DNA from: a bacterium
GTDB taxonomy: Bacteria; Bacillota; SLNR01; JBMNPB01
Assembly (NCBI GenBank): GCA_050943375.1
Contig: JBMNPB010000001.1
Span: 102,278 to 166,277 of the forward strand
Direction of reading: 5' to 3'
Length of the DNA stretch: 64,000 nt
Part shown: piece by piece, positions 10,670 to 63,152 of the stretch
Position numbering within the stretch: position 1 is the first letter of the stretch
Layout: the number at the start of each line of letters is the position of its first letter
Notes under the pieces: generated by a model
Database searches by the model: none
Told to the model about the DNA's origin: nothing
What the model saw: the letters and a program-made list of their open reading frames with translations, nothing else
Program-made: the position numbers and the translations under genes

Positions 10670-10925
10670 AATAAACATCAATAATAATGACAACAGCAAA
10701 GAAAGGGAGAAGTAGACTGTTTTCACCGTCAGAGAAGGAGGTGTCAGGTGTAAGCCTCCCCGGTTGGAAACTCTCGAAGGTCGCCTTGGAGCTTCCGGGC
10801 TGAAGGCAGTAAGCCCGGGCGGGTACGCCCGTTACTGCGCCGAGTGTCCCGGCCCCGGTCGGGGAACTAAGGTGGTACCGCGGAAATGAACCCTTTCCGT
10901 CCTTATGGGCGGCGAGGGTTTTGTT
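10670..10925 (+). promoter_or_regulatory. T-box riboswitch leader of valS (with intrinsic terminator 10891-10925)
   Basis: AGAGA (GA/K-turn) box at ~10731. AGTA-like box (gcagtaa). Conserved T-box sequence aactaaGGTGGTACCGCGg at 10865-10883. A terminator hairpin ccctttccgtcc/gggcggcgaggg plus a U-run follows directly. Sits upstream of an aminoacyl-tRNA synthetase gene. Confidence 0.8.
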
Positions 10926-15941: not shown

Positions 15942-16100
15942 GGCGAATCATAGCAATATGCATCATGAAACATATAGGTAAAATTTAATATTATTTTTTA
16001 AAATTCAATATGCATTAACAAACATAATAAAAATATATGTATTAAACATAGTTATTAAAGGTTAAGTAAATCTATCTAATACATTAGAAGATATAAAGCA
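15942..16100. repeat. ~50-bp motif (ggcgaatcatagcaatatgcatcatgaaacata … tagaagatataaagca) split by a 110-bp AT-rich insert; second uninterrupted copy at 16865-16916
   Basis: Direct comparison of the two regions. The insert 15975-16084 is ~20% GC in a ~60% GC genome. Confidence 0.6.
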
Positions 16101-16250: not shown

Positions 16251-16808
16251 ATGAACAAAACAGTTGCCTTTATCACTAAAACCGCGATGCTGCTGGCATT
16301 AACTGTCCTGTTCCAGTCGCTGCGGGTTATTATCCCGATGCCGGCGTCGCTCAGCCAGTTTATCGCCGGTTCTCTGGTCAATATGTCGCTGATTATTGCC
16401 GGCGTCACCATTGGCATTCGGGGCGGCTTGGCCGTCGCCGTGCTCACTCCGGTTGTTGCTTTGCTGCATGGTTTTATCGGCAACCCGGTCCTGGTTCCTT
16501 TTGTTGCTCTCGGCAATGTGATTATCGTCGTCATTGTCCCCTTGCTTTACCACTCCAATCGACACTTGGCCGTCATCGCCGGAGCCGCCGCCAAATTTGT
16601 CACGCTTTATCTGCTGATCGTGAAATTTGCTTTTCCGGTCCTGCTGGCACCATCGTTGCCGGCGCCGCAGGCATCTAAGATGATTGGCGTGCTTTCTTAT
16701 CAATTTTCCTGGCTGCAGTTCGTCACGGCTTTGCTGGGTGGGGTGCTGGCTATGATAATTCTGCCTTGGCTGGTTAGGATAAACAATCAGCCGGGTGCAA
16801 AGTTCTGA
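16251..16808 (+). CDS. ECF-transporter S-component-like small membrane protein (substrate unknown)
   Basis: 185 aa with ~5-6 TM helices and an N-terminal MNKT…TKTAMLLALTVLF signature typical of ECF S components (ThiW/QueT/RibU-like). RBS aggagga. Confidence 0.7.
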   Translation: MNKTVAFITKTAMLLALTVLFQSLRVIIPMPASLSQFIAGSLVNMSLIIAGVTIGIRGGLAVAVLTPVVALLHGFIGNPVLVPFVALGNVIIVVIVPLLYHSNRHLAVIAGAAAKFVTLYLLIVKFAFPVLLAPSLPAPQASKMIGVLSYQFSWLQFVTALLGGVLAMIILPWLVRINNQPGAKF

Positions 16809-17343
16809 CACCTTTGCCGGGCGGCTGGCTGCTACGGCAAGGCAATGCGTGCGAATAAAGGAAAGGCGAATCTCATCAATATGCATGACAAAACATAGCG
16901 GTAGAAGATAAAGCATAAAAAGAGGATATCCATGTAACTTCCCTGCTTGGTATAATGTAATCTTCCCCGGTGCGAAAACAGTTGAATGCACATCGGCGTT
17001 TCCCGACTTGGCGGCAGGCGTGGCGCCGGAGAAGCGACGGGGAGGGCCAATGTATGTCTCGGTGCGCCCAAAAGGGGGAAGACGCGCTTCCAGTTAACCG
17101 TAGCGCTGCAATATTTACAGACAACGGCCTTGAGAGATCTGTCCAACAAAATTAATTATGCTAATAAAAAATGCTGAAGGAATAGAGGATTTGCTAATTC
17201 ACAGATATCTACTGCAGTCAAATTCCTGCCGGAGTGAAGGTAACAACCGGGCGAAAGGTGGTGACGTTTAGTAAAAGTCGGACTCTTATGTTCTTGCATG
17301 AATCGGGACTGAAAATTGTTGGGACAGAAGGAGGTTATCAAGT

Positions 17344-17835
17344 ATGGCAGAGGTATGCAAATACTGCGGTGACCGGCAAGTAGAGATGTATAAGGCTTTG
17401 GACAAGGTCATCGCGGAATACAAGGGCAAGCCCGGAGCGCTGATTCCGGTATTGCACCAGGCGCAGCAAATCTTCGGCTGCCTGCCTAAGGAAGTTCAGA
17501 TCCATGTGGCTGAAGGCTTGGACGTTCCGCTGGGCGACGTGTACGGAGTAATCACCTTTTACGCCTTCTTCTCTATGAAGCCGAAAGGGAAATACCAGAT
17601 CGGCGTCTGCATGGGTACGGCCTGTTATGTCAAAGGAGCGGTCAAAGTTCTGGAAGCATTGGAACAGCAGCTGGGAATAAGGCAGGACGATACCACGGAA
17701 GACGGCAAATTTTCGCTTGAGGTGCTGCGCTGCATCGGCGCCTGCGGTCTGGCGCCGGCCATCAAAATCAACGATGAAGTCTACGGCCGGATGACGGCGG
17801 GCAAAGTGGCCGAAGTATTGGCGAAATACGCCTGA
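17344..17835 (+). CDS. hydC: NuoE-like [2Fe-2S] subunit of NADH-dependent [FeFe]-hydrogenase (HydC/HndA-type)
   Basis: Thioredoxin-like [2Fe-2S] NuoE family motifs (…GTACYVKGA…RCIGACGLAP…). RBS gaaggagg. First gene of a hydrogenase operon. Confidence 0.9.
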   Translation: MAEVCKYCGDRQVEMYKALDKVIAEYKGKPGALIPVLHQAQQIFGCLPKEVQIHVAEGLDVPLGDVYGVITFYAFFSMKPKGKYQIGVCMGTACYVKGAVKVLEALEQQLGIRQDDTTEDGKFSLEVLRCIGACGLAPAIKINDEVYGRMTAGKVAEVLAKYA

Positions 17836-17850
17836 GGTCGGAGAAAGTCG

Positions 17851-18405
17851 ATGCGCGAACTGTCCCTACATATCATTGATATCCTGGAGAATTCCCGAAC
17901 GGCGGGGGCAACGCGAATTGACTTAGCCATCCGGCTCGATTCGGCGGCCGACCGGCTGACTATCCGGGTCACGGACAACGGCAGGGGCATGGACGCCGAG
18001 ATGGTCCGGCGGGCGACCGACCCGTTTGTGACTACCCGGACGGCGCGGAAGGTCGGTTTGGGGCTGCCGCTCTTAGCGGCGGCGGCAAGCCGCTGCCACG
18101 GCGATCTGTCGATTGTCTCGGAGCCGGGCAAGGGCACAAGCGTGACGGCGTTGTTTCAGCACAGTCACATCGACCGGGCGCCGCTGGGAAATATCATCGA
18201 TACCGTAACCGTATTCATCAGCGGTAATCCCGAAATCGCATTTATTCTTCGTTACAGCGTGGACGGCCGGGAAATGCGGTTGGACACGGCGGAATTGCAG
18301 GCAGAATTAAGCGATGTATCACTGAGCCACCCTTTGGTGGCCGGTTGGATAAAGCAGTACCTGCGGAAGAAATTGATTGAATTACGCGGAGGTGAAGATT
18401 GGTGA
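17851..18405 (+). CDS. GHKL (histidine-kinase-like) ATPase-domain protein embedded in the hydrogenase operon
   Basis: HATPase_c motifs (N-box …IDLAIR…, G-boxes DNGRGM and GLGLPL, GKGTSV). No HisKA or receiver domain. Similar proteins sit between hydC and hydD in Thermoanaerobacter-type hydrogenase clusters. Confidence 0.75.
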   Translation: MRELSLHIIDILENSRTAGATRIDLAIRLDSAADRLTIRVTDNGRGMDAEMVRRATDPFVTTRTARKVGLGLPLLAAAASRCHGDLSIVSEPGKGTSVTALFQHSHIDRAPLGNIIDTVTVFISGNPEIAFILRYSVDGREMRLDTAELQAELSDVSLSHPLVAGWIKQYLRKKLIELRGGEDW

Positions 18406-18764
18406 AGTCGTTGGCGGAATTGGCGGAATTACGAAAGAAGGCGCAAGAAATGACCCGGCTGCGGGAAGGAGACGCGCCGTTGAAAGTAGTGGTCGGTATG
18501 GGCACTTGCGGTATCGCGGCCGGAGCGAGAGATACGATGGCGGCCATTCTGGACGAATTGGCCCAGCATAATAGGGATGATGTAACGGTAACCCAGACGG
18601 GATGCGCTGGGCGGTGCGAGATGGAACCGCTGGTGGAAGTGTGCGAACCGGGCCAGCCCAAAGTCACTTACGGCAAGGTGACTCCAGAGAGAGCCCGCCG
18701 CATAGTCGCCGAGCATATCGGCAGCGGCCGGATAATCGAGGAGTGGGTCGTAGCTAAGCAGTAA
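18399..18764 (+). CDS. hydD: thioredoxin-like [2Fe-2S] ferredoxin subunit (HydD/HndB-type)
   Basis: 121 aa. Cys motifs CGIAAG…C…C typical of NuoE-like/HndB ferredoxins. TTG/GTG start after RBS ggaggtg. Confidence 0.8.
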   Translation: MVKSLAELAELRKKAQEMTRLREGDAPLKVVVGMGTCGIAAGARDTMAAILDELAQHNRDDVTVTQTGCAGRCEMEPLVEVCEPGQPKVTYGKVTPERARRIVAEHIGSGRIIEEWVVAKQ

Positions 18765-18904
18765 AGCATTTTCCCCTGCAAGGGAAAGTTCGGCTTTTCA
18801 CAAGCATCTAACAATCGCTCCGTCTGGCGGATAATACCGGCGGCGGACAAGGCACGAGAACACCGGGTAGTACAGAAAAGCCCGGGCTAAAGGAGGGCAA
18901 TATT

Positions 18905-20698
18905 ATGGACAGGGTTAGGGCGCACGTTTTGGTTTGCGCCGGGGCCGGCTGCATTTCCTCCAACTGCAAGGCGGTGGAGGAGGCCCTGGTCGATGAACTG
19001 GAGAAACAGGGGCTGGCGCAGGAAGTTAAAGTAGTTGAAACCGGCTGCATCGGCACCTGCGAGCTTGGCCCCATCATGGTAATTTACCCGGAAGGGATAT
19101 TTTACTGCAAGCTTAGGCCGGAAGACGCCAGGGAAATTGTCAGCGAGCACCTGCTGAAAGGGCGCCGGGTGGAGCGGCTGATGTACCGGCGGCCGGGCAG
19201 CGATATACCCATCGAAGCTGTCGACAATATCGACTTTTTCCGCAAGCAGGTACGGATTGCCCTGCGGAACACCGGTATCATCAATCCGGAAATCATCGAG
19301 GAATATATTGCCCGGGACGGTTACGCCGCTCTCGGCAAAGTGCTCACGGAGACGACTCCGGCGGAAGTCATTGATATAATGAAGAAGTCGGGCTTGCGGG
19401 GACGCGGCGGCGCCGGTTTCCCGACCGGCCTCAAATGGGAGTTTACGGCGAAAGCGAAAGGAACTCCCAAATACATTGTCTGCAACGCGGACGAAGGCGA
19501 TCCGGGTGCTTTTATGGACCGGAGCATTCTGGAAGGCGACCCGCACAGCATTATTGAAGCGATGGCCATCGCCGCTTATGCGGTGGGGGCAAACCAGGGC
19601 TATGTCTATGTCCGGGCTGAGTATCCCCTGGCAGTGGAAAGATTGAGCCAGGCGATCGGCAAGGCAAGAGAATACGGCCTGCTGGGCAAGAATATCCTTG
19701 GCACGGGATTTGATTTCGACCTGGAAATCCGGATCGGGGCCGGCGCTTTTGTATGCGGCGAAGAAACGGCACTGCTCGCCTCCATCGAAGGCAATCGCGG
19801 CGAACCGCGGCCGAAGCCGCCGTTCCCGGCGAACGAAGGAGTCTGGGGCAAGCCGACTTTGAACAACAATGTGGAGACTTACGCTAATGTTCCGGCGATA
19901 ATTCTCAAAGGCTGGGAATGGTATTCCGGCATCGGAACGGAGAAAAGTAAAGGCACGAAGGTTTTCGCCCTCGCCGGCAAGTGCAACACGGCGGGGCTTG
20001 TGGAAGTGCCGATGGGTACGACGCTACGGGAGATTATTTACGATATTGGCGGCGGTATCCAGGGTGGCAAGAAGTTCAAGGCGGCCCAGATCGGCGGACC
20101 TTCCGGCGCCTGCCTGACGGCCGAGCATTTAGACCTGCCGATGGACTATGAAAATCTGAAGGCGGTAGGTGCCATGGTCGGCTCGGGCGGCCTGATTGTT
20201 ATCGACGAGGACAACTGCATGGTTGACGTGGCGAGATTCTTCCTCGACTTCACCCAGGATGAATCCTGCGGGAAATGCGTGCCTTGCCGGATCGGGACGA
20301 AGCGGATGCTGGAAGTCCTGAACCGGATCTGTGAAGGAAAAGGTGAAGAAGGCGATATCGATAACCTGTATGAGTTGGCCAAAGTCATCAGCGGCTCCGC
20401 CCTTTGCGCGCTCGGTCAGACGGCACCAAACCCGGTGTTGAGTACGATTAAACACTTCCGGGATGAATATGAAGCGCACATTAAAGAGAGGCATTGTCCG
20501 GCGGGTATTTGTAAACCGCTCATCACATACACCATTAATCCCGCTGTCTGCCGTGCCTGCGGACTGTGCGCCAAGGCCTGCCCGGTAGAGGCCATCAGCG
20601 GGAAAGTGAAGGACAGCTTCGCCATTGGCCAGGCGAAATGCATTAAATGCGGCACTTGCCTGGAAAAATGCCCGTTCGGAGCAATTGAGAAAAAATAA
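18905..20698 (+). CDS. hydB: NuoF-like NADH-binding flavo-FeS subunit (HydB/HndC-type)
   Basis: N-terminal thioredoxin-like domain, then a 51-kDa NADH/FMN fold (GLRGRGGAGFPTGLKW) and SLBB domain. [4Fe-4S] NuoF motif (CGKCVPCR) and two C-terminal ferredoxin-type CxxCxxCxxxCP motifs. Confidence 0.9.
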   Translation: MDRVRAHVLVCAGAGCISSNCKAVEEALVDELEKQGLAQEVKVVETGCIGTCELGPIMVIYPEGIFYCKLRPEDAREIVSEHLLKGRRVERLMYRRPGSDIPIEAVDNIDFFRKQVRIALRNTGIINPEIIEEYIARDGYAALGKVLTETTPAEVIDIMKKSGLRGRGGAGFPTGLKWEFTAKAKGTPKYIVCNADEGDPGAFMDRSILEGDPHSIIEAMAIAAYAVGANQGYVYVRAEYPLAVERLSQAIGKAREYGLLGKNILGTGFDFDLEIRIGAGAFVCGEETALLASIEGNRGEPRPKPPFPANEGVWGKPTLNNNVETYANVPAIILKGWEWYSGIGTEKSKGTKVFALAGKCNTAGLVEVPMGTTLREIIYDIGGGIQGGKKFKAAQIGGPSGACLTAEHLDLPMDYENLKAVGAMVGSGGLIVIDEDNCMVDVARFFLDFTQDESCGKCVPCRIGTKRMLEVLNRICEGKGEEGDIDNLYELAKVISGSALCALGQTAPNPVLSTIKHFRDEYEAHIKERHCPAGICKPLITYTINPAVCRACGLCAKACPVEAISGKVKDSFAIGQAKCIKCGTCLEKCPFGAIEKK

Positions 20699-20752
20699 GG
20701 ATGCCGCCAAAGGGCAACGGAAGGCATTCAAAAAGAAGGAGTGTGTAAGGCA

Positions 20753-22480
20753 ATGGTATCGCTGAACATCGACGGGCGGAACGTCAGCGTTGAACCCGGG
20801 ACGACTGTGCTGCACGCGGCAGAAAAAGCCGGGATTCACATTCCGACCCTTTGTTATCTGAAAGACATCAACTGCATCGGCGCCTGCCGGGTTTGCGTAG
20901 TGGAAGTCGAAGGCGCTCGGGCGCTGCAGACCGCCTGCACTTATCCGGTGGCGGAAGGCATGGTCGTGAAGACCAACACCCCGGCAGTGCGGGCGGCGAG
21001 GAAAGCGGTAGTCGAATTAATCTTGTCCGACCACCCCCAAGACTGTCTGACTTGTTTCCGCAATCAGAACTGCGAGCTGCAGAAACTGGCCCAAGATCTC
21101 AATGTCCGGGAAGTCCGTTTCGCCGGCGAACAGACCCATCATCCCATCGATGCCTCCAGCCTGGCAATCGTCCGTGAACCGGACAAATGCATTCTTTGCC
21201 GGCGCTGCATCAGTGTCTGCCAGCAAGTGCAGGGCGTTCACGCCATCGGAATGGCGGAGCGGGGCTTCAAAAGCCTCGTCACCCCGGTTTTCGGGGAGGA
21301 CTTGGCTGACGTCGCCTGCGCCAATTGCGGCCAATGCGTTCTCGCCTGCCCGACCGGCGCTCTGCACGAGAAAGACGATACCGATAAAGTCTGGGCGGCC
21401 TTGACCGATCCGACGAAGCATGTCATCATTCAGACGGCTCCGGCCGTCCGGGTTGCAGTGGGCGAGGAGATGGGAATGGAGCCCGGGAGCCTCGTTACCG
21501 GCAAGATGGTGGCTGCGATCCGGCGGCTTGGCTCTGACAAAGTGTTTGACACCGACTTTACGGCCGATCTGACGATAATGGAAGAAGGGCACGAATTGCT
21601 GCACCGTTTGAACAACGGCGGCAAGCTGCCGATGATCACCTCCTGCAGCCCCGGCTGGATCAAGTATATTGAGCATTTTTACCCGAATCTTCTGGAGCAT
21701 CTCTCGACGTGCAAATCACCGCAGCAGATGTTCGGGGCACTGGCCAAGACGTATTACGCGGAGAAGGAAGGCATCGACCCGAAAGATATTGTCAGCGTTT
21801 CGGTAATGCCCTGCACGGCGAAGAAGTTCGAAGCCAAGCGGCCGGAAATGGATGACAGCGGCTATCAGGATGTGGATATCGCGATTACGACCCGGGAACT
21901 GGGCAGGATGTTCCGGGAAGCTGGGTTAGATTTTGCGAATCTGCCGGAGGAAGAATACGACGCTCCGCTGGGAATCAGCACCGGCGCCGGTGTTATCTTC
22001 GGCGCGACGGGCGGCGTCATGGAAGCGGCCCTGCGCACGGTGTACGAAGTCGTGACCGGCAAGACGCTGGAAAAAGTCGAGTTCACGGCGGTCCGGGGCC
22101 TGGAAGGCATCAAAGAAGCAACGGTTCAGGCTGGTGACATACCGGTGAAGGTGGCGGTAGCGCACGGCCTTGCCAATGCCCGGAAGATAATGGATCTGAT
22201 TCAAGACGGAAAAGCCGATTATCAATTCATCGAAATCATGTGCTGCCCGGGCGGGTGTATTGGTGGCGGCGGCCAGCCAATCCCGACCAATACCAAAATA
22301 CGCGGCAAGCGGGCGATGGCCATCTACACCGCGGATGAACTCTCAGTTATCCGCAAATCCCATGAAAACCCGGCGGTGCAGACATTGTACAAAGAATTCC
22401 TGGAGAAGCCCCTCGGGGAAAAATCCCATCATCTGCTGCACACTCATTACACGAAGCGGCCAAAATACCCGAAGGTTTAG
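20753..22480 (+). CDS. hydA: [FeFe]-hydrogenase catalytic subunit with NuoG-like N-terminal FeS domains and variant H-cluster motifs
   Basis: N-terminal 2Fe-2S and 4Fe-4S domains. H-cluster motifs: L1 ITSCSPGW (21632-21658), L2 MPCTAKKFE and L3 EIMCCPGGCIGGGGQP. ATG 20753 with RBS aaggag. Confidence 0.9.
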   Translation: MVSLNIDGRNVSVEPGTTVLHAAEKAGIHIPTLCYLKDINCIGACRVCVVEVEGARALQTACTYPVAEGMVVKTNTPAVRAARKAVVELILSDHPQDCLTCFRNQNCELQKLAQDLNVREVRFAGEQTHHPIDASSLAIVREPDKCILCRRCISVCQQVQGVHAIGMAERGFKSLVTPVFGEDLADVACANCGQCVLACPTGALHEKDDTDKVWAALTDPTKHVIIQTAPAVRVAVGEEMGMEPGSLVTGKMVAAIRRLGSDKVFDTDFTADLTIMEEGHELLHRLNNGGKLPMITSCSPGWIKYIEHFYPNLLEHLSTCKSPQQMFGALAKTYYAEKEGIDPKDIVSVSVMPCTAKKFEAKRPEMDDSGYQDVDIAITTRELGRMFREAGLDFANLPEEEYDAPLGISTGAGVIFGATGGVMEAALRTVYEVVTGKTLEKVEFTAVRGLEGIKEATVQAGDIPVKVAVAHGLANARKIMDLIQDGKADYQFIEIMCCPGGCIGGGGQPIPTNTKIRGKRAMAIYTADELSVIRKSHENPAVQTLYKEFLEKPLGEKSHHLLHTHYTKRPKYPKV

Positions 22481-22785: not shown

Positions 22786-23125
22786 CGCATCTCTGCGCCA
22801 GGCATAGCGGGAGGCGTTCAGGTACGAGCGGCTCGTTCTGGGCCTCAATTTCCTGCGGATAAGGCGTACCCTGAGATGCTCGCGATTCTCGCGCCGTTGG
22901 CCGACACGCTTATTCTGACTAAACCCGACAGCCCGCGGGCGGCAGAGCCGGAAGAACTGCAGGTGATCGCTGCCCGGTTCCAGAGCGATATCCGCCTGCA
23001 GGCAACAGTCGGGCAAGCGGTCGACGCGGCTTTGCGCATCGCCCGTCCGGCCGACCTTGTGTGCATTGCCGGGTCTTTGTATACAGTCGGCGCAAGTCGC
23101 GATAGATGGGGAAAATCGGCTTAAA
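22786..23125 (+). pseudogene. displaced partial copy of the folC 3' end (codons ~323-431), paired with 15383-15718
   Basis: The 82-aa ORF 22876-23124 is near-identical to the FolC C-terminus (MLAILAPLADTLILTKPD…SLYTVGASRDRW). It has no 5' part of the gene and no RBS. Confidence 0.8.
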
Positions 23126-23388
23126 ACAAAGATTACCCGATAACAACTGCTTTGACTTTTCGGGCTTTTTTAGCTAAGATGAAACTTAAAGAGAGCAGTC
23201 GGAGCAGCCAAATTACACCAAAGCGGAAATTAACTGTCTGTTGCAGGGATTCCGCAAAATTTGTCTAACACATAAATAGTTCAAAACATCACAAAATATT
23301 TTGTCGTCGACGGGCGGCAATATTATGATTGCAAAATTAGTATATATTTAATATCATTGCCGGGCGGGCGATTGGGGAGGTTAGAAAT

Positions 23389-23742
23389 TTGCCTCTTGTT
23401 CTTGAAGATGTTCGTCGTATTCTGGACGCGGAAATCATCAGCGGGGAAGAGAGGCTGGAGCGCCCAGTCGCTACGGTTTGCGCCTCCGATATGATGAGCG
23501 ATGTCCTAACGGTTGCCAAGGAACACGCAATCCTGCTTACGAGTCTCGCCAATCAGTATGTCATCCGCACGGCCGAAATAACCGATCTGGATGCGATTGT
23601 GTTTGTCTGCGGCAAGCGGCCGGATGCTGCCGCTACCGCTTTGGCCCGCCGAGTCGGCATGCCCCTTATGGCGACCGGCAAAACAATGTTTGAAAGCTGC
23701 GGCCTGTTGTATGGACATGGATTTAGGAGTGTTGCGCAGTAA
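23389..23742 (+). CDS. DRTGG-domain protein
   Basis: 117 aa. DRTGG-type fold signature (…DMMSDVLT…AILLTSLAN…DLDAIVFVCG…). TTG start after RBS ggggagg. Confidence 0.7.
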   Translation: MPLVLEDVRRILDAEIISGEERLERPVATVCASDMMSDVLTVAKEHAILLTSLANQYVIRTAEITDLDAIVFVCGKRPDAAATALARRVGMPLMATGKTMFESCGLLYGHGFRSVAQ

Positions 23743-23777
23743 AGCGGGGCGGTCTGGGAGCAGTGGGAGGAAAAAGA

Positions 23778-24245
23778 ATGGCTGGCGAGGAAAGTAGCGG
23801 GAGAAAGTCCGCCCCTGTGCTGACAATGTCGTTCCCGGTCAACTACCGGAACTTCGGAGCGGTCGGGGAAGCCGCCAGCCGAATTAAGACCGCGCTTCAA
23901 AAAATCGGCGTACCGCCTCCGATTATCCGACGGGTGGCAGTTGCCGCTTATGAAACGGCAATGAATATCGCAATTCACGCCGAGCGGGGCGACCTTATCT
24001 TAATCATCAACCCCGACTGCATCGAGATTTTAGCGGAAGACACCGGAGCCGGAATTGCTGATTTGGAGATGGCCATGCAGGAGGGGTATTCGACTGCCCC
24101 CGATTATATCCGGAAAATGGGTTTCGGTGCCGGAATGGGACTGCCCAACAGCAAGCGCTGTGCCGATATATTTGAACTCCGCTCTCAACTCGGCAAAGGT
24201 ACGACAGTCTACATCCGGATTAATGTTCCGGAACAAGCCGAATAA
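23778..24245 (+). CDS. GHKL ATPase (anti-sigma-factor/RsbW-SpoIIAB-like HATPase_c) protein
   Basis: HATPase_c N-, G1- and G2-boxes (…AYETAMNIAIHA…, DTGAGI, GFGAGMGL). ATG 23778 with RBS gggagg. Confidence 0.7.
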   Translation: MAGEESSGRKSAPVLTMSFPVNYRNFGAVGEAASRIKTALQKIGVPPPIIRRVAVAAYETAMNIAIHAERGDLILIINPDCIEILAEDTGAGIADLEMAMQEGYSTAPDYIRKMGFGAGMGLPNSKRCADIFELRSQLGKGTTVYIRINVPEQAE

Positions 24246-24313
24246 CGATGAAAAGAAACAGCCGGCTCGGTAACGCCCCGGGCCGGGGAGAGAAGGCAAG
24301 CGAGGTGAGAAGA

Positions 24314-24652
24314 ATGAAACTGGGAGACCTGGCCAGGGAGCTAGGTCTGCGGGTCTGCAGCGGACAGGAGTATCTGGAGCGAGAAGTGACCGGGGGTTAT
24401 TGCTCGGACATGCTCAGTGACGTCATGGCTCATGCGCAGGAAGGCAATATTTGGCTGACTATCCAGACTCATCAGAACATCGTCGCGGTGGCTTCTCTCC
24501 TCGGGCTGTGCGCCATTGTTATTACCGGCGGTGGTGAACCGGATGCGGACACGCTGGGAAAAGCCCAAAAAGAGGAAGTCGCTATTCTTACCACTGCGTG
24601 GTTTTCATTTGAAACAGGCGGCCGGATTTATCAACTGCTGGCCAAAGGATAG
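24314..24652 (+). CDS. DRTGG-domain protein (second copy)
   Basis: Paralogous to 23389-23742 (…GYCSDMLSDVMA…IWLTIQTHQN…AIVITGG…). ATG 24314 with RBS gaggtgag. Confidence 0.7.
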   Translation: MKLGDLARELGLRVCSGQEYLEREVTGGYCSDMLSDVMAHAQEGNIWLTIQTHQNIVAVASLLGLCAIVITGGGEPDADTLGKAQKEEVAILTTAWFSFETGGRIYQLLAKG

Positions 24653-25079
24653 CCGCGGCAAAATTACGGCCGGGCATGCTGAAAGCTTTGTGGCGCCGGA
24701 GCCGAAATGCCGGCGATACGATATCGCCCAGATTGGGGCGGAAAGAGTCAGCATAATTACTGACGACCGCAAAAGAGATCTGCTCGTCAGAGTTTTCGAC
24801 GTCCGCTGACCAGAAGTTTCAGACCGGGAGCGAACGCAGATTGGAACGGCTGAATCGCTACGGTAAAATCAGCCCCGCTGTACGGACCGAGCAGAATGAA
24901 AAGGTGGTGATAGCCAGTCATATGCGCGCCAGTATCCGAAAGCCGGAGTTTTTCACCCGGCACGAAAGCTTCTCCGGGATATTTGCGGAACTGGTTCTAT
25001 CAGATTTGAGTAATACCGCCGGGTCAGGCAGCGCGAGTTGCCGGTTTTCCTGAATAACCGCCTCTGTTTGGGTCTGCAA

Positions 25080-25114
25080 TTATGGCTGAAATATGAGAGC
25101 GGCTATGGTATAAT
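25080..25114 (+). promoter_or_regulatory. extended -10 promoter (TGgTATAAT) upstream of the fdh module
   Basis: tggtataat at 25106-25114. Weak -35. Confidence 0.4.
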
Positions 25115-25158
25115 GCCAGCGTGTGTGCAATTTTTCACAAATTTTGCTCAAATCCATA

Positions 25159-25677
25159 ATGAAGCTGAGGGAGGTGTTTTCATTGGCAAAACGCAAGACG
25201 GTTGTACCGTTTCAGGGCACAGCAGAGCAGGAAGCGAAGCTTCTGGAGATTATCGAGAAGCATAAAGGGGTGCAAGGCGCATTGATGCCGGTCCTGCAGC
25301 AGGCCCAGGATCTTTACGGCTATCTTCCCATCGAGGTCCAGAGAATCATTGCCGATAAGATGGGCTTGCCGCTGTCGGAGGTCTATGGCGTAGCTACGTT
25401 CTACGCACAGTTCACTCTCAATCCGAAAGGCAAGCACCAGATTGCAGTCTGTCTGGGGACTGCTTGCTATGTAAAGGGTTCGGGCGCGGTGATTGAACGT
25501 ATCGGCCAGAAGCTCGGCATCGAACCGGGCGGGATTACCCCGGACGGCTTGTTCTCGCTGGAGGCGACACGTTGCATCGGCGCTTGCGGACTGGCGCCGG
25601 CGATGACCATCGACGGCAAGGTTTACGGCCGCCTGACTCCGGCAGATGTGGATGAAATCATTGATTCATACAAGTAG
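25159..25677 (+). CDS. NuoE-like [2Fe-2S] subunit (paralog of hydC) of the formate dehydrogenase module
   Basis: Same NuoE signature (GTACYVKGS…RCIGACGLAP). Start ambiguous: ATG 25159, or TTG 25183 after gagggagg. Confidence 0.85.
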   Translation: MKLREVFSLAKRKTVVPFQGTAEQEAKLLEIIEKHKGVQGALMPVLQQAQDLYGYLPIEVQRIIADKMGLPLSEVYGVATFYAQFTLNPKGKHQIAVCLGTACYVKGSGAVIERIGQKLGIEPGGITPDGLFSLEATRCIGACGLAPAMTIDGKVYGRLTPADVDEIIDSYK

Positions 25678-25738
25678 GACGAGTCTTGGCTTTAACGACT
25701 CGCAGCAATTGTGAAAAATCATAAGGAGGTGTATTCCT

Positions 25739-27598
25739 ATGAAATCCCTGGCGGAACTTGCCGAATACCGGGAAAAAGTGAAGGCTGAATGCAATTTGCG
25801 TCAAGACAAATCGGACGACACGCGGGTGTTGGTCGGTTATGCGACATGCGGAATTGCAGCCGGCGCTACCCCGGTGCTGGACGCCTTTATCGAAGAAGTT
25901 GGCAAACGTCGACTCCCGAAAGTGATGGTGACCCAGACCGGCTGTATCGGTATCTGTAAGCTCGAACCAGTGGTGGAAATCCTCGAGCCCGGCAAAGAAA
26001 AAGTGACCTATGTGGAATTGACTCCGGATAAGGTGGAAAAAATCGTCACAGAGCATCTGCAAAACGGCCGGGTGGTCGATGAATACACGATCGGCGCCCA
26101 TGAGGAAGGCATCCAGAGTCTGAACGACAGCAAGTTTTACAAGAAGCAGCGACGCGTGGCGCTGCGGAACTCCGGAATCATCAATCCAGAGTCAATCGAC
26201 GAATACATCGCCCGTGACGGTTATGAAGCGCTCGGGCGCGTGCTGACCAGCATGCAACCGGAAGACGTCATCGCTACCATCAAGAATTCCGGCCTGCGTG
26301 GCCGTGGCGGTGCCGGCTTCCCGACCGGCCTGAAGTGGCAGTTCGCTGCGGCCAGCCCCGGACCGGTGAAATATGTCTGCTGCAACGCCGACGAAGGCGA
26401 CCCCGGCGCGTTCATGGACAGATCGGTGCTGGAAGGCGATCCCCACGCTTTGCTGGAGGCGATGACTATCGCCGGTTACGCCATAGGTGCGCATCAAGGA
26501 TATATCTATGTCCGGGCTGAGTATCCGACCGCAATCAAGCGCCTGCAGATCGCTATCGACCAAGCGCATAAATACGGTTTCCTGGGCAAAAACATCTTTA
26601 ACACCGGTTTCGATTTTGATCTGGAACTGAGGCTTGGCTCGGGTGCGTTCGTGTGCGGCGAGGAGACGGCGCTGATGATCTCCATCGAAGGTAAGCGCGG
26701 TGAGCCCAGACCCCGGCCGCCTTTCCCGGCAGTCAAAGGTCTGTTTGACAAGCCCACTATTCTGAACAACGTTGAGACTTACGCTAATATCCCGCGCATT
26801 ATTCTGAACGGCGCCGACTGGTTCTCCGCCGTCGGAACCGAAAAATCGAAAGGCACCAAAGTGTTCTGCCTGGTCGGCAAAATCAACAACACCGGCTTGG
26901 TGGAAATCCCGATGGGTACAACTTTGCGGGAGGTAATCGAGGAAATCGGCGGCGGCATCCAGGGCGGCAAGAAATTTAAGGCAGCGCAGACCGGCGGTCC
27001 CTCGGGCGGCTGCATCCCCGCATCCTTAATCGATACACCCATCGATTACGATAACCTCGTCGCCATCGGCGCGATGATGGGCTCGGGCGGTCTCATCGTT
27101 ATGGATGAGGACACATGCATGGTGGACATCGCTAAGTTCTTCCTGGAATTCACGGCCGAGGAGTCCTGCGGTAAGTGCACACCCTGCCGCATCGGAACGA
27201 AACGTCTGCTGGAAATGCTCGAGAAGATCACCCGTGGCGAAGGCACACTGGAACTGCTTGACGACATGGAAGAGCTGTGTAACGGCATCAAAAACAACAG
27301 CCTTTGCGCCCTCGGTCAGACAGCCCCGAACCCGGTTCTGTCAACGCTGCGCTATTTCCGGGATGAATATGTTGCCCATGTGGTCGACAAAAAATGCCCG
27401 GCTGGTGTTTGTAGGGATCTGCTGTCCTATGAGATTGACGCCGACAAGTGCATCGGCTGCACGGCTTGTGCCAGAGCCTGCCCGGCGGGTGCCATCTCCG
27501 GCAAGGTTAAGGAAAAGCATGTTATCGATAAGGCCAAGTGCATCAAGTGCGGCGCTTGCCTCGAAGCTTGTAAGTTCGGCGCCGTCGCCAAGAAATAA
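25739..27598 (+). CDS. NuoF-like NAD(H)-binding flavo-FeS subunit with fused N-terminal thioredoxin-like ferredoxin domain (paralog of hydB)
   Basis: GLRGRGGAGFPTGLKW, CGKCTPCR and C-terminal 2x[4Fe-4S] motifs. Collinear with 18905-20698. Confidence 0.9.
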   Translation: MKSLAELAEYREKVKAECNLRQDKSDDTRVLVGYATCGIAAGATPVLDAFIEEVGKRRLPKVMVTQTGCIGICKLEPVVEILEPGKEKVTYVELTPDKVEKIVTEHLQNGRVVDEYTIGAHEEGIQSLNDSKFYKKQRRVALRNSGIINPESIDEYIARDGYEALGRVLTSMQPEDVIATIKNSGLRGRGGAGFPTGLKWQFAAASPGPVKYVCCNADEGDPGAFMDRSVLEGDPHALLEAMTIAGYAIGAHQGYIYVRAEYPTAIKRLQIAIDQAHKYGFLGKNIFNTGFDFDLELRLGSGAFVCGEETALMISIEGKRGEPRPRPPFPAVKGLFDKPTILNNVETYANIPRIILNGADWFSAVGTEKSKGTKVFCLVGKINNTGLVEIPMGTTLREVIEEIGGGIQGGKKFKAAQTGGPSGGCIPASLIDTPIDYDNLVAIGAMMGSGGLIVMDEDTCMVDIAKFFLEFTAEESCGKCTPCRIGTKRLLEMLEKITRGEGTLELLDDMEELCNGIKNNSLCALGQTAPNPVLSTLRYFRDEYVAHVVDKKCPAGVCRDLLSYEIDADKCIGCTACARACPAGAISGKVKEKHVIDKAKCIKCGACLEACKFGAVAKK

Positions 27599-27785
27599 GC
27601 GATATTCTTGTCTGCATCCCGTTTAAGGCGGGATCCGGCTGCGGCCGTCCTGGCGCCGCCGGCAATGAAGCCAGCGGTTTTTGTCTCGTCAGAGAAAGAA
27701 GGCGGACGGCTGACCGGGGTGCAGGTGTCGCTTCATCATCACACAACAAGGATTCACTTCAGTGAATTCACGAGGAGGGATAACC

Positions 27786-30461
27786 TTGATAAACGTCACC
27801 ATCGACGGCATTCCGGTACAGGTGGAAGAAGGCGCAACCATTCTCGATGCCGCCGAAAAGGCCGGAATTCATATTCCCACCCTCTGTCATTTAAAGGGGG
27901 TCACCGGCGAAGGCTCCTGCCGGATGTGTTTGGTCGAGGTCGAAGGTGTGCGCGGTATGCCAGCCGCCTGCTCCTTCCCGGTGGCTGAGGGCAATGTGGT
28001 TCACACCGACACCCCCAAAGTCATCGAAAGCCGCAAGTTCGTCCTGAACCTGCTGCTCTCGAACCACAGAACGGATTGCTTCTCCTGTGCCAAAAACGGC
28101 GATTGCAAGCTGCAGGAGTACTGCTATGAATATGGAATCGAGATGTCGAAATACGAAGGCGAAAAAACCGAAGCTCCCATTGACGACAGCAACGAGTTCT
28201 TCACTTACGATCCTTCCCAATGCATCATGTGCCGTCGTTGCGTAAACACTTGCCACAAGCTGCACGGCGTCGGCGCCATCTCCGTTGTCGACCGGGGTTT
28301 TTCGGCGGCAATCCGCGCCCCCTTCGACGAACTGCTGAAAAGCAGCGACTGCGTCTCCTGCGGCAATTGCGTCTCCAACTGCCCGGTCGGCGCCCTGGCT
28401 CCCAAATCGAAGCATCGTTTCCGTACTTGGGAAGTCAAACACGTTCCGACCACCTGCAGTTACTGCGGCGTCGGCTGCCAATTGGATCTGCTGGTCAAGG
28501 GTAATAAAGTGGTCGGCGTACAACCGCTTGACGGTCCCGCCAACCACGGACTGCTTTGCGTCAAAGGCAAATTCGGGTATGAGTTTATCGACCATCCCGA
28601 CCGCCTGAAGAAGCCGCTGATTCGCAAGGACGGCGAATTGGTGGAAACGAGCTGGGATGAGGCGCTTGACTATGTGGCCGACAAACTGAAGGCGATCAAG
28701 GCCGAAAGTGGCCCCGACGCCATCGCCGGCTTGACCAGCGCCCGCTGCACCAACGAAGAGAACTATGCTTTTATGAAGATGATGCGCGCAGCCGTCGGCA
28801 CTAACAATGTCGATCACTGCGCCCGCCTCTGACACTCCCCAACGGTGGCCGGTCTGGCCGCCACACTGGGGTCCGGTGCTATGACTAACTCTATCGCGGA
28901 AGTAGCTGACGCTGATCTGGTCTTTGTGACCGGTTCCAATACCACTGAAACGCATCCGGTTATCGGTTCGCTGATCCGGCAGGCCAAACGTAAGGGCGGC
29001 AAGCTCATTGTGGCTGAACCGAGGAAGATTCCGCTCTGCCGCGAGGCTGATTTGTTCCTGCAGATCAAACCGGGTACCAACGTCGCGCTGCTCAACGGGA
29101 TGATGAACGTCATCATTGCCGAAGGACTGCAGGACCAGGCATACATTGATGCCCGCACCGAAGGCTACGAGGAGCTGAAAGCGGTTGTCGCCGACTACAC
29201 TCCCGATAAAGTGGCCGAAATCTGCGGTATCGAAGCGGAAGACCTGAAGACCGCGGCCCGGATGTATGCCGAGGCCGGTGTAGCCGGTATCTTTTATGCC
29301 ATGGGTGTGACCCAGCATACAACCGGTACGGAAGGGGTCATGAGTACTGCCAACCTGGCGCTGCTGTGCGGCAATATCGGCAAATACGCCGGCGGTGTTA
29401 ACCCGCTGCGCGGACAGAACAACGTCCAGGGCGCCTGCGATATGGGCGGGCTGCCCGGTGATTTCTCCGGCTATCAGAAAGTAGCGAACCCGGCCGTTAT
29501 CGAGAAATTCGAGAAGGCCTGGGGTGTGAAGCTGTCCAATAAGCCCGGCTACACCGTCATGGAAATGATGGACGCTATCGACAAAGGCGAGGTTCGCGCT
29601 ATGTATATCATGGGTGAGAATCCCATGATTTCCGACCCCGATATCCAGCACGTCGAACACGCGCTTAAAAAATGCGAGCTCCTCGTGGTTCAGGATATCT
29701 TCCTGACCGAAACGGCTGCTCTCGCCGACGTTGTTCTCCCGGCCGCTGCTTTCGCTGAGAAGGATGGTACCTTTACTAACACCGAGCGGCGCGTGCAGCT
29801 GGTCAACAAGGCGGTGGAAGCACCCGGCGAGGCGAGAACCGACTTGGATATCATTAACGATATGACAGCGCGCCTCGGATACAAAAACAACTTCGCGACT
29901 CCGGCCGAAGTGCTGGCGGAAATCGCCGCGGTGACGCCTTCCTACGGAGGGATGTCGGTGGAGCGGCTCAAGGACGGAGGGCTGCAGTGGCCCTGCCCCG
30001 ACAAGGACCATCCCGGCACTCCTATCCTGCATGCTAAGAAGTTCTCCCGCGGCGAGCGCGCGATCTTCAAGCCGGCGAAGTACCGTTCCGGAGCGGAACA
30101 GCCCGATGCTGAATATCCTTATATCTTCACGACGGGCCGGATCCTTTATCAGTATCACACCCGCACTATGTCGGGCAAGGTCGACGGTCTTAACGCCATC
30201 GCGGGCAACTCCTATGTGGAGATTAACCCGACCGATGCCGCGAAATACGGCATTAAGCAGGGCGACGCCGTCACGGTCAGCTCCCGGCGGGGCAGCGTGA
30301 CCGTCCCGGCTCAGGTCACGGAGGCGGTCGCCGAAGGGATTATCTTCATGCCCTTCCATTTCGCCGACGGTCCGGCCAATCTGCTGACTAACGCTGTATA
30401 TGATCCTATCGCCAAGATCCCGGAATACAAGGTCTGCGCAGTCAAGATCCGAAAAGGATAA
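27786..30461 (+). CDS. fdhA: selenocysteine-containing formate dehydrogenase alpha subunit (NuoG-like N-terminus plus molybdopterin domain); in-frame UGA at 28830-28832
   Basis: The ORF-track ORFs 27762-28832 and 28845-30461 are in the same frame. The junction reads …VDHCARL-U-HSPTVAGLAA…, the canonical Sec context of Fdh-type enzymes. A SECIS-like hairpin follows. TTG 27786 after RBS gaggaggg. Confidence 0.85.
28837..28871 (+). promoter_or_regulatory. bacterial SECIS-like hairpin 5 nt downstream of the in-frame UGA
   Basis: Lower stem cccc/gggg, internal loop, upper stem gtggc(c)gg/ccgccac with a bulged C and apical loop UCUGG. Confidence 0.55.
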
Positions 30462-30522
30462 AACGATGCTTCCGGTTTGCGCCGGCTCATACCGGCGCAA
30501 ACCGGCCCCGGGAGGGAGTCCA

Positions 30523-31137
30523 ATGAAAATGTTCGGAACAGCGGCCATTCTGGCCGGCGGCAAATCATCGCGAATGGGTTTTGACAAGCAGTTGCTCACG
30601 CTTGACGGGAAACGGTTTCATGTTCAAATCATCGAACAGCTACGGCAATTGTTTGGCGATGTTCTGCTGGTGACGAACAAGCCGGAGTTTTACCGGGAAT
30701 TGCCAGTACGGGTCTGCTCCGACGTTTTTCCCGGAAGGGGTCCGCTCGGCGGCATTCACGCGGCGCTGTTCAATGCCCAAAGCCGTTATGTCTATGTGCT
30801 GGCCTGTGATATGCCGTGTGTTTGCCCCGGTTATATCCATTACCAGATGAAACTGCTTCGGCGCAACCCCTCCGGCGCCTGTGTCACCCGGAAGGAGGAC
30901 TGGCTGGAGCCTTTCAATGCCTTTTACAGTACCGACACTCTCCCGATTTTGTCCCGCCATCTGCAGGAAGGGAAAAGCTCGCTTTATTTCTTTCTGAAGG
31001 AAATCAACGCTGCTATTCTGGCGGAAGAGACAGCCCGCCGCTTTGATCCGGAGATGAATATGTTCCTCAATCTGAACACTCCGGCGGAGTATGAGGCCTT
31101 TATCAAAAGGAGAGGGCGATATGAAGCTTGCGGTTGA
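30523..31137 (+). CDS. mobA: molybdenum cofactor guanylyltransferase
   Basis: N-terminal nucleotide-binding motif AILAGGKSSRMG. ~205 aa. ATG 30523 with RBS gggaggga. Confidence 0.8.
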   Translation: MKMFGTAAILAGGKSSRMGFDKQLLTLDGKRFHVQIIEQLRQLFGDVLLVTNKPEFYRELPVRVCSDVFPGRGPLGGIHAALFNAQSRYVYVLACDMPCVCPGYIHYQMKLLRRNPSGACVTRKEDWLEPFNAFYSTDTLPILSRHLQEGKSSLYFFLKEINAAILAEETARRFDPEMNMFLNLNTPAEYEAFIKRRGRYEACG

Positions 31138-31900
31138 TGCGCCGATTTTGCGCTATGAAGATGGGCAAACCAGGTTGCTCGACGATCCCGTCGTTGTCGA
31201 ATACCGACTGGCTGTCTGGCTGAACGGAGCGCCTTGGGTCAATCTCCTGTGCTCACCGCAGGATCTGGATGTACTGGTGCTGGGTTATCTGTACGGCGAA
31301 GGCATTATCAAGACGCCGGACGATATCCTGTCGATTGCCCTCGCGCCGGAAGACGGCATCGCCCGGGTAACGGTCCGGGGTGTGCCGGAGATGCCGGCCC
31401 AGGCCGGTCCGATCACGGCCCCCCGCGGCGCCGGGCGGCAGCACGCAATGGGCGGCGCCGGCCCGGGCCGCCCGGCTGAGCCTCTTTCGGGCAGTCTAAA
31501 CTTTGCCGGTGGTGCGCTGCTTAGGAATCTGCGGCAGTTCTACGCCGACTCGGGCTTGCACCGATTGACGGCAGGGGTGCACCGTGCCGCTCTCTGTGAC
31601 GACAACGGCATCCTTCTGACCGCCATTGATATCAGCCGGCATAATGCTTTCGACAAGGTGCTCGGCATGGCCTTGCGGCAAAACATCCCGCTGGAATGCC
31701 ACTATCTGATCACCAGCGGCCGTGTTCCCAGCGACATGGTCAACAAAGCGATTACCGCCCGTTTGCCTATGCTGGTATCCCGGGCGGCGCCTACAGATTG
31801 GGCAATCAGACTCGCCCGGGAAGCGAACATGACGCTGCTGGGATTCTCCCGTGAGAATCGCTTCAACATTTATACCGGAGCACACCGGGTTAATATGTAG
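31121..31900 (+). CDS. fdhD: FdhD-family formate dehydrogenase accessory sulfurtransferase homolog (cysteine loop not evident)
   Basis: FdhD-like N- and C-terminal blocks (…LTAGVHRAAL…DISRHNAFDKVLG…VSRAAPTDWAIRLAREANMTLLGFSR…). ATG 31121 with RBS aggaga. Overlaps the mobA end. Confidence 0.8.
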   Translation: MKLAVDAPILRYEDGQTRLLDDPVVVEYRLAVWLNGAPWVNLLCSPQDLDVLVLGYLYGEGIIKTPDDILSIALAPEDGIARVTVRGVPEMPAQAGPITAPRGAGRQHAMGGAGPGRPAEPLSGSLNFAGGALLRNLRQFYADSGLHRLTAGVHRAALCDDNGILLTAIDISRHNAFDKVLGMALRQNIPLECHYLITSGRVPSDMVNKAITARLPMLVSRAAPTDWAIRLAREANMTLLGFSRENRFNIYTGAHRVNM

Positions 31901-38262: not shown

Positions 38263-39081
38263 ATGCTGCATGCAATAGCCAGTCTGGGCGGGATTGGTCT
38301 CGTTATCGGGGCGATTCTGGCGTACGCGGCGAAAATCTTTGCCGTGGAAAGTGATCCGCGGCTCGAAGCGATAGTCGGGGTGTTGCCGGGAGCGAACTGC
38401 GGCGCCTGCGGCTATGCCGGCTGTGCGGCTCTGGCCGGGGCGATTGCCGCCGGGCAGGCGCCCGTTGACGCCTGTCCCGTCGGGCGGGCGCCGGTTGCTG
38501 AGAAAGTGGCCGAAATTATGGGCATTAATGCGGGAGGCCCGGCTGTGAAAAAGCAGGCGCAAGTGCTTTGCCAAGGCGGAAAAGATATCGCCAAGACAAA
38601 GTATGAATATGCCGGCATTGATGATTGCCAGGCGGCGGCTCAGGTCGCCGGTGGGCCGAAAAGCTGCGAATATGCCTGTATCGGTCTCGGTAGCTGCGCC
38701 GAAGCTTGTCCTTTCGGTGCCATCAGCGTGAGCGCGGATGGTCTTCCGGTGATTGACGGGGAAATCTGCACCGGCTGCGGTGTTTGTGTTAAGACATGCC
38801 CGAAGCAAGTGCTGGACTTGGTGCCGCAAAACAGCCGGGTTCAAGTCAGGTGTAATTCGAATGCCAAAGGTGCCGCCGTGCGGCCGGTCTGCCAGAAAGG
38901 CTGCATCGGCTGCGGGATTTGCGCTAAAAATTGTCCGGCCGAGGCGATAAGAGTCGAGGACAATCTGGCAAAAATCGACTATGACAAATGCACCGGCTGC
39001 GGAATATGCGCCGCCAAATGTCCGACTAAGGCGATTACGGCCGGCGGGGAAGAGGCGGAGTCAAAACGGGCGGCTGGATAG
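38263..39081 (+). CDS. rnfB: Rnf complex subunit B (polyferredoxin)
   Basis: N-terminal membrane anchor, CGACGYAGC motif and multiple CxxCxxCxxxCP ferredoxin motifs. Confidence 0.9.
   Translation: MLHAIASLGGIGLVIGAILAYAAKIFAVESDPRLEAIVGVLPGANCGACGYAGCAALAGAIAAGQAPVDACPVGRAPVAEKVAEIMGINAGGPAVKKQAQVLCQGGKDIAKTKYEYAGIDDCQAAAQVAGGPKSCEYACIGLGSCAEACPFGAISVSADGLPVIDGEICTGCGVCVKTCPKQVLDLVPQNSRVQVRCNSNAKGAAVRPVCQKGCIGCGICAKNCPAEAIRVEDNLAKIDYDKCTGCGICAAKCPTKAITAGGEEAESKRAAG

Positions 39082-63076: not shown

Positions 63077-63152
<76 letters not shown>

Follow-up and report, generated by a model that had tools for sequence, protein, structure and literature searches.

Why do two genes for DRTGG-domain proteins and a gene for a small GHKL-type ATPase stand together upstream of a formate dehydrogenase (FDH) operon, and why does a further, lone GHKL ATPase gene stand inside a hydrogenase operon nearby? 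The question is raised by a 64,000-nucleotide stretch of DNA (hereafter the window) from a bacterium of the Bacillota (GTDB lineage SLNR01; JBMNPB01), which covers positions 102,278 to 166,277 of contig JBMNPB010000001.1 in assembly GCA_050943375.1. An initial annotation, made from the sequence alone, read the three upstream genes (DRTGG-1, GHKL-A and DRTGG-2; the triad) and the embedded ATPase gene (GHKL-B) as partner-switching kinase modules of the RsbW/SpoIIAB kind, or as ATP-dependent assembly or regulatory factors, dedicated to NuoEF-type redox enzymes. Here, we show that all four genes, the triad and GHKL-B, come from one conserved cassette that normally counts six. The reading of the whole locus that we favor, and consider reasonably though by no means overwhelmingly probable, is that a remnant of this cassette was left behind by the loss of a putative hydrogenase-like sensor gene (hydS) and a PHP phosphoesterase gene and by a move of the hydrogenase (hyd) operon, and that the cassette acts as an ATP-driven signaling switch on NuoEF-type enzymes.

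Four small genes of a conserved six-gene cassette

All four open reading frames (ORFs), as well as the genes that flank them, are present on the forward strand where the initial annotation had placed them. DRTGG-1 (positions 23389..23742; 117 residues) starts at a TTG codon at 23389 behind the ribosome-binding site (RBS) GGGGAGG, GHKL-A (23778..24245; 155 residues) at the ATG at 23778 behind GGGAGG, and DRTGG-2 (24314..24652; 112 residues) at the ATG at 24314 behind GAGGTGA, within a longer in-frame ORF that runs from 24248. The NCBI calls MGI5838147-9 (117, 155 and 112 residues) agree with these starts. GHKL-B (17851..18405; 184 residues) lies between hydC and hydD. Both DRTGG proteins are single-domain members of Pfam DRTGG (PF07085; cut-off 25.2 bits), DRTGG-1 marginally so at 25.3 bits and DRTGG-2 at 29.3 bits. 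GHKL-A is a single-domain ATPase resembling SpoIIAB, RsbW and RsbT (HATPase_c, 32.6 bits; HATPase_c_2, 28.5 bits), and GHKL-B joins a Bergerat fold (HATPase_c, 61 bits; HATPase_c_3, 29 bits) to a C-terminal domain of 80 residues. As first reported for this locus, Pfam finds no HisKA, receiver (Response_reg), helix-turn-helix or other DNA-binding domain in any of the four proteins. Database homologues number 954 for GHKL-A, 2444 for GHKL-B and 223 for DRTGG-1; those of the two ATPases are uniformly single-domain proteins of 140-190 residues (140-170 in nearly all 954 relatives of GHKL-A), and the longer entries carry no extra Pfam domains. This rules out truncated fragments of two-component kinases, a possibility that the initial annotation had itself raised: each of the four proteins is complete and belongs to a large family.

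When one genome per species was scanned, a GHKL-A relative turned up in at least 600 species from many phyla; the 80 loci returned were annotated by phmmer with the seed proteins, and the 55 with enough flanking DNA were counted. The cassette has the order DRTGG-1, GHKL-A, the group D (M2e) putative sensory [FeFe]-hydrogenase HydS, DRTGG-2, PHP phosphoesterase and GHKL-B. DRTGG-1, DRTGG-2 and PHP are each present in 53 of the 55 loci, HydS and GHKL-B each in 48, and 50 loci have a NuoF gene no more than 10 kb away. Together with the enzyme genes the typical order reads DRTGG, GHKL-A, HydS, DRTGG, PHP, (NuoE), GHKL-B, HydD, NuoF, HydA, and it is constant in six neighborhoods from Bacillota, Atribacterota, Desulfobacterales and Syntrophomonadaceae, for which GHKL-A or GHKL-B homologues served as seeds. 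The HydS neighbor, of 420-470 residues, has two Fer4 domains, an H-domain (Fe_hyd_lg_C) and a C-terminal iron–sulfur (FeS) domain and no PAS domain, which makes it an M2e hydrogenase. The conservation of gene neighborhood on which the initial annotation had made its claims depend is thus very strong. In the window, the DRTGG-1/GHKL-A pair is followed by DRTGG-2 in the order seen in 53 of the 55 loci, and GHKL-B stands beside hydD; the adjacency to a NuoEF-type hydrogenase or FDH is kept, now split by rearrangement.

In most genomes the cassette lies directly before or inside NuoE/NuoF-type operons, and in the Oscillospirales the entire cassette is found between hydC and hydD. As operon partners it mostly has HydABC-type hydrogenases and, in some cases, NuoEF-FdhA formate dehydrogenases; in loci L050 and L074 (also in L011 and L083) the cassette precedes selenocysteine-containing NuoF-FdhA enzymes of the type found in the window. 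The proposed linkage to NuoEF-type enzymes, FDHs included, is therefore borne out. GHKL-B is preceded by PHP (32 loci) or NuoE (25 loci), and HydD comes next in 43 of 59 loci. In L003, L092 and L093, however, the cassette stands without hydrogenase genes and GHKL-B is still present, which argues that GHKL-B is a component of the cassette rather than of the enzyme. The initial picture of a lone ATPase embedded in the hyd operon is therefore right as to its place between hydC and hydD, and needs correction in that GHKL-B forms the final member of the cassette. In the one lineage represented by L003-L005 (13586-14748), the place of a hydrogenase after the cassette is taken by RseC/MucC and Rex genes with multiheme cytochrome genes behind them, and in Lutispora thermophila (L091, 11176-16305) an rnf operon comes directly after the cassette and NuoF. 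The ‘TSCSP’ motif of HydA is no oddity but the norm: of 36 HydA proteins linked to a cassette, 30 have it.

HydS is missing from nine loci. In six of these (L033, L062, L071, L074, L079 and L089) a CBS pair is fused to the N-terminus of GHKL-A, for a total of about 300 residues, and this fusion occurs in no HydS-bearing locus; because the fusion and HydS are mutually exclusive among the loci, the sensor appears to be exchangeable. In L065, L082 and L083, HydS is likewise missing, GHKL-A is short and PHP has been kept. L083 and the window share substitutions at the otherwise conserved DRTGG-1 positions 52 and 74 and at GHKL-A positions 38, 66 and 96 of a 160-residue ORF with a GTG start (33, 61 and 91 of the 155-residue protein), a coincidence in two lineages only that is suggestive of a tie to the HydS-less state.

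Loss of hydS and PHP and relocation of the hyd operon

The triad is no self-contained module; it is what remains of the six-gene cassette without HydS and PHP. In the closest relative, L001, the genes valS, an unassigned gene of 153 residues, folC, the full cassette, hydC and GHKL-B follow one another up to the contig end, and the orthologues are 66% (DRTGG-1), 72% (GHKL-A) and 81% (DRTGG-2) identical to those of the window. A blastn comparison of L001 with the window gives three colinear blocks whose break-points exactly flank hydS and PHP. Where an M2e hydS would lie between GHKL-A and DRTGG-2, the window has only a scar of 68 nucleotides (24246..24313, forward strand) that aligns to the first ~30 and the last ~45 nucleotides of the L001 gene, with about 1.3 kb lost between them. 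Because the scar keeps both gene ends, hydS was once present and was then deleted internally. Nor does a PHP gene follow DRTGG-2. Apart from the scar, tblastn finds no second HydS copy or HydS-like remnant in the 64-kb window, and a PHP remnant is absent from it at E < 10. One ‘HydS’ match, at 38263-39081, was rejected as an RnfB-like protein (FeS plus four Fer4 domains) whose gene is probably the end of an rnf operon starting near 33909.

The hyd operon and GHKL-B have been relocated between the intact folC and the old, truncated 3′ end of folC. Whereas in L001 folC directly precedes DRTGG-1, in the window this syntenic place upstream of DRTGG-1 is held by a pseudogene fragment of the original folC 3′ end (folC′; 22797..23124, forward strand), recognized by its identity to the 3′ end of the window’s own folC (93.4% over 319 nucleotides at 15384-15702; 97% over an ungapped 258 nucleotides) and already frameshifted. 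The intact folC (14417-15712) is followed by novel AT-rich DNA, by a gene for the S-component of an energy-coupling factor (ECF) transporter (16251-16808) and by the hyd operon, whose homology to L001 starts at 17323, 21 nucleotides 5′ of hydC. The DNA between the two folC copies may thus have been inserted as one segment that brought a folC 3′ end along.

A second example of the stripped triad is found in L008 (Logan ERR3486052), positions 1-1413 of which correspond to 23368-24780 of the window at 99% identity. Beyond position 24780, L008 has amidohydrolase genes and no fdh; either variation between strains or a chimeric assembly could account for this break-point. Since L008 shares the HydS-less triad and has other genes downstream, the deletion appears to be older than the split between the strains, and the junction with fdh appears not to be fixed.

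Predicted roles of the cassette proteins and competing explanations

For GHKL-A, the RsbW/SpoIIAB-like reading of the initial annotation agrees with the profile of its family, which matches SpoIIAB structures in the PDB at E ~2e-10 and RsbW at 1.6e-3. GHKL-A is nonetheless no spIIAB equivalog, since its NCBIfam spIIAB score of 41.6 bits falls below the cut-off of 135. The protein of the window keeps the family-invariant N-box residues E59 and N63, the G1 box D88xGxG92 and the G2 box GFGAGMG, and has the make-up of the single-domain HATPase_c_2 Ser/Thr kinases of partner-switch modules, which makes it a putative kinase as far as its sequence goes.

GHKL-B appears to be another sort of GHKL protein, with a MutL-like fold. 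The top full-length Foldseek matches of its AlphaFold2 (AF2) model (predicted local distance difference test, pLDDT, 90.7) are the N-terminal regions of PMS2, MutL, MLH1 and TopoVI-B, at a query-normalized template-modeling score (TMq) of only 0.54-0.57, and GRP94 is near as well. The catalytic and ATP-binding (CA) domains of histidine kinases align with the model over only ~100 columns, and the 80-residue C-terminal domain is much smaller than the transducer domain of GHL proteins. The earlier grouping of GHKL-B with the ATPase of the triad thus does not hold in the predicted fold. Just past the ATP-binding fold, residues 102-113 (window positions 18154-18189) form the motif F..SHIDRAPLG, in which F102, H106, D108, R109 and G113 never vary across the family and conservation reaches at least 90% at I107, A110 and P111. 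The H-box of histidine kinases reads SHELRTPL, and SHIDRAPLG looks similar by eye; no profile or sequence search supports the likeness, and a HisKA-like C-terminus was ruled out, there being no Pfam or PDB sequence match even at E = 10. A role in anti-phage defense was likewise set aside, as GHKL-B gives just a weak match to MzaB.

The AF2 model of DRTGG-1 (pLDDT 93) has a complete DRTGG fold, with Foldseek TM scores of 0.78 to AF1212 (2IOJ), 0.71 to the DRTGG insert of CBS-containing pyrophosphatases and 0.6-0.7 to the N-domain of HprK/P; its top 50 matches include no STAS structure, and the model leaves no space for a helix-turn-helix. Predicted strands end, on their C-terminal side, at the conserved residues D34/S37/D38, T51/G52 and R74/G75/K76, which may form a ligand or phosphoryl pocket. 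In the window, DRTGG-1 departs from residues conserved in at least 80% of the family at A41T, G52S, Q57Y, R74C and L112F, and positions 41, 52, 57 and 74 are also at least 90% conserved among HydS-bearing loci; DRTGG-2 deviates at one of 15 conserved columns. The PHP protein of L001 is nearest to nucleotide phosphoesterases, namely the Cv1693 pAp phosphatase (2YB1, E 1e-5) and RNase AM (7UG9).

We propose that the cassette would act as a cytoplasmic signaling device and not as a set of transcription factors. A sensor, either HydS or, in HydS-less genomes, the CBS pair fused to GHKL-A, would feed an ATP-dependent switch in which GHKL-A may phosphorylate or sequester the DRTGG proteins, PHP may reverse this step and GHKL-B may pass the setting of the switch on to the HydD/NuoEF module post-translationally, such that enzyme activity would be tuned to H2 (via HydS) or to adenylates (via CBS). 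We infer post-translational control because the cassette has no DNA-binding component and is co-transcribed inside structural operons. In the window, with HydS and PHP gone, H2 would no longer be reported and the module would either be locked in one state or answer another input, the triad now standing in front of the fdh operon and hyd having an upstream region of its own. A bolder form of this proposal, which strikes us as unlikely, takes the triad and GHKL-B to be the sensor-independent core of an undescribed switch, free of STAS and PP2C, that gates the flavin-based electron-bifurcating enzymes of the NuoEF type (HydABC and NAD-dependent FDH) post-translationally through plug-in sensors, with GHKL-B perhaps a permuted mini histidine kinase acting through His106; were it true, the locus would show that the core works, or serves formate dehydrogenase, without a dedicated sensor.

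Several observations weigh against the switch as proposed. Phosphorylation, binding and a regulatory effect are what we infer for every one of the cassette proteins, and GHKL-A is the single component that carries the analogy to partner switches, because there is no STAS, PP2C, sigma factor or DNA-binding part. By Foldseek, GHKL-B resembles a MutL-type clamp and not a kinase, and the PHP protein of L001 is not near protein phosphatases; since its closest relatives act on nucleotides, a nucleotide-based mechanism is possible. HydS and PHP could also be encoded elsewhere in the genome, beyond the window. Furthermore, each of the 55 loci has kept at least one of HydS and PHP, and DRTGG-1 G52S and R74C and GHKL-A E61A fall at positions that are at least 90% conserved. 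The window and L008 are separated by 13 differences, with five codons changed non-synonymously and three synonymously, too few to decide. This unique HydS-less and PHP-less state, the codon ratio and the substitutions at conserved sites would be compatible with early decay.

Taken further, these last points lead to the idea that the triad is a non-functional remnant, orphaned once hydS and PHP were lost and hyd had a promoter region of its own, and now drifting toward pseudogenes. This we hold to be improbable. The locus is a rearrangement hot-spot, where folC has been duplicated, two deletions have occurred and the DNA downstream is not the same in L008, and the GHKL-A consensus residue E61, like DRTGG-1 positions 52, 57 and 74 a highly conserved site altered here, is still present in L008. 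Yet the three ORFs are intact with good RBSs whereas the adjoining folC′ is already frameshifted, and the ATP-binding motifs are whole. Relative to L001, the ratio of non-synonymous to synonymous substitution rates (dN/dS) is 0.13-0.19 for the triad, against 0.20 for GHKL-B and 0.20 for folC, at a synonymous divergence (dS) of ~1. Accelerated evolution of the triad was considered and dropped, as a relative-rate test of the window and L001 against the family consensus gives no significant acceleration (strongest for GHKL-A, 8 versus 2 changes, p = 0.11). DRTGG-2 and GHKL-B hardly depart from the family consensus, each showing a single deviation. Judged on these patterns of constraint, the remaining genes are probably still functional.

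Two further explanations accept the genes as functional and differ in what they are for. A self-sufficient partner switch of the RsbW/SpoIIAB type, made up of a kinase and two antagonists and dedicated to the downstream fdh operon, would account for the likeness of GHKL-A to SpoIIAB and RsbW and for the place of the triad directly 5′ of fdh, and it has parallels in the selenocysteine NuoF-FdhA-linked cassettes named above, most closely in L074, where DRTGG-1 and CBS-GHKL-A stand immediately 5′ of NuoF-FdhA. We find it quite unlikely: genes for STAS, PP2C and sigma factor proteins are missing from the annotation of the window’s unit and of the neighborhoods looked up, the DRTGG fold differs from STAS, the hydS scar demonstrates that the triad is a deletion product, in L008 amidohydrolase genes come after the same triad, and a gap of 470 nucleotides with a separate promoter-like site lies before fdh. 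What stands of the partner-switching module first suggested is accordingly the kinase-like GHKL-A, and not its STAS antagonist, PP2C phosphatase or sigma factor. It is very unlikely, in turn, that the proteins serve the ATP-dependent assembly or maturation of the FeS and flavin subunits of NuoEF enzymes, with GHKL-B as an Hsp90/MutL-like clamp on HydD, even though the genes are co-transcribed inside structural operons (in the Oscillospirales between hydC and hydD), HydD so often directly follows GHKL-B and the fold of GHKL-B is nearest to MutL, TopoVI-B and GRP94. The occurrence of the cassette without enzyme genes in L003, L092 and L093 and the interchange of HydS with a CBS pair, a behavior typical of sensor domains, argue for signaling rather than assembly; the cassette moreover includes a low-activity, sensor-type hydrogenase (PMC8163306), and the fdh module of the window has no GHKL-B of its own.

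Genomic surroundings and relation to known systems

The two enzyme operons of the window both lie on the forward strand. The hyd operon (17344..22480), delimited from Pfam and NCBIfam matches and ORFs, consists of the NuoE-like hydC (17344-17835), GHKL-B, hydD (18399-18764), the NuoF-like hydB (18905-20698) and hydA (20741-22480). The fdh module (25183..31900), annotated with Pfam, encodes a NuoE-like protein (about 25183-25677), a NuoF-like protein (25739-27598), FdhA (27762-30461), a MobA-like protein (30400-31137) and FdhD (31091-31900). FdhA is a selenoprotein, as its in-frame TGA (28830-28832) lies inside the HCARL-U-HSP motif (...VDHCARL-U-HSPTVAG...); a GC-rich hairpin lies just 3′ of it. 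The region’s best promoter-like site (25086-25114; 10/12 matches with an extended -10) is 5′ of fdh. Right after its -10, at 25123-25140, GTGTGCAATTTTTCACAA is two mismatches away from the Rex box TTGTGAA-N4-TTCACAA; a Rex operator was rejected because 55 of 100 shuffles yield as many such sites, so that there is no excess over chance. Neither the 470-nucleotide gap before fdh nor the region 5′ of hyd has an Rfam match even at E <= 1, and the ORF of 70 residues at 24841-25053 matches no family. A 21-nucleotide motif, CAATATGCATNANNAAACATA, occurs three times (15954-15974, 16006-16026 and 16877-16897; none expected from 100 shuffles), twice 5′ of the ECF S-component gene and once ~50 nucleotides 5′ of an extended -10 (TGgTATAAT) before hyd. 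It is in none of the 93 fetched loci and may be a shared operator. Farther out, the window keeps the conserved Bacillota backbone valS-folC ... rplU, with a T-box leader (10690-10907) before an 899-residue tRNA synthetase gene (valS-like), an L21 leader (55886-55957) and a tRNA gene (63077-63149).

SpoIIAB/SpoIIAA/SpoIIE and RsbW/RsbV/RsbU are the closest models for GHKL-A. The cassette shares with them an ATPase of ~150 residues of the HATPase_c_2 type with complete N, G1 and G2 boxes, adjoining small alpha/beta proteins and, in canonical cassettes, a phosphoesterase. However, the partners here are DRTGG and not STAS proteins, the phosphoesterase is a PHP protein (TrpH/Cv1693-like) and not a PP2C, no sigma factor is nearby and the cassette includes a further ATPase, which is MutL-like. 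Family II inorganic pyrophosphatases (3L2B/3L31) contain, in their CBS-DRTGG insert, the same DRTGG fold, and the association with CBS recurs in the CBS pair on GHKL-A in HydS-less cassettes; whereas the DRTGG of the pyrophosphatases is an internal enzyme domain, that of the cassette forms free-standing proteins of 112-117 residues. The group C HydS systems (TmHydS, Ruminococcus albus HydS and Thermoanaerobacterium hfsABCD; PMC5707799, PMC11837493) resemble the cassette in combining a putative H2-sensing [FeFe]-hydrogenase with kinase or phosphatase genes and fermentative hydrogenases. Their sensor carries a PAS domain and their partner is a serine phosphatase (PMC11837493), with no DRTGG, PHP or small GHKL protein, and we therefore reject an equivalence of the cassette with hfsABCD.

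For group D, M2e hydrogenases have been described upstream of bifurcating hydrogenases and beside kinases (Carere et al., 2012, PMC3561251, citing Calusinska, 2010), and M2e HydS is found together with HydABC in TTE0887/TTE0892-0894, in Cthe_0335/Cthe_0340-0342 and with TamHydS (PMC3561251, PMC8163306). In Clostridium thermocellum, HydS is Cthe_0335 (PMC3561251) and GHKL-B is Cthe_0339 (PMC3990059); going by gene numbers alone, the other orthologues would lie around Cthe_0335-0339. TamHydS represents the M2e/group D class, and its description mentions a flanking ‘histidine kinase-like ATPase’ and asks for the route of the signal (Land et al., 2020, PMC8163306); signal transduction by group D HydS and its partners are still to be identified (PMC8163306; PMC13104023, 2026). 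Full-text literature searches for DRTGG together with hydrogenase returned nothing relevant. The link between M2e HydS, kinase and HydABC has thus been noted since 2010-2012, whereas DRTGG, PHP and GHKL-B as parts of the system are undescribed in searchable papers.

Five conserved partner candidates can now be named for H2 sensing and the tuning of electron-bifurcating hydrogenases in anaerobes, namely the two DRTGG proteins, the SpoIIAB-like ATPase, the PHP phosphoesterase and the MutL-like ATPase, with a CBS pair apparently able to replace the sensor. The link to an NAD-dependent formate dehydrogenase makes the system relevant to electron transfer between H2 and formate. The locus described here is a natural deletion variant, and the ATPases and DRTGG proteins that it has kept look constrained, a pointer to the core parts. 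Its families and their order are those of group D (M2e) HydS loci, with a kinase-like ATPase before the sensor, a ‘histidine kinase’ gene lodged between hydC and hydD and, downstream, a hydrogenase of the NuoEF type, exactly the layout of L001. It differs from them in that the sensor, of which a scar is left, and PHP are deleted, hyd has moved off and an FDH operon follows. The cassette is therefore of a known but uncharacterized kind, of which this locus is a new, sensor-less variant.

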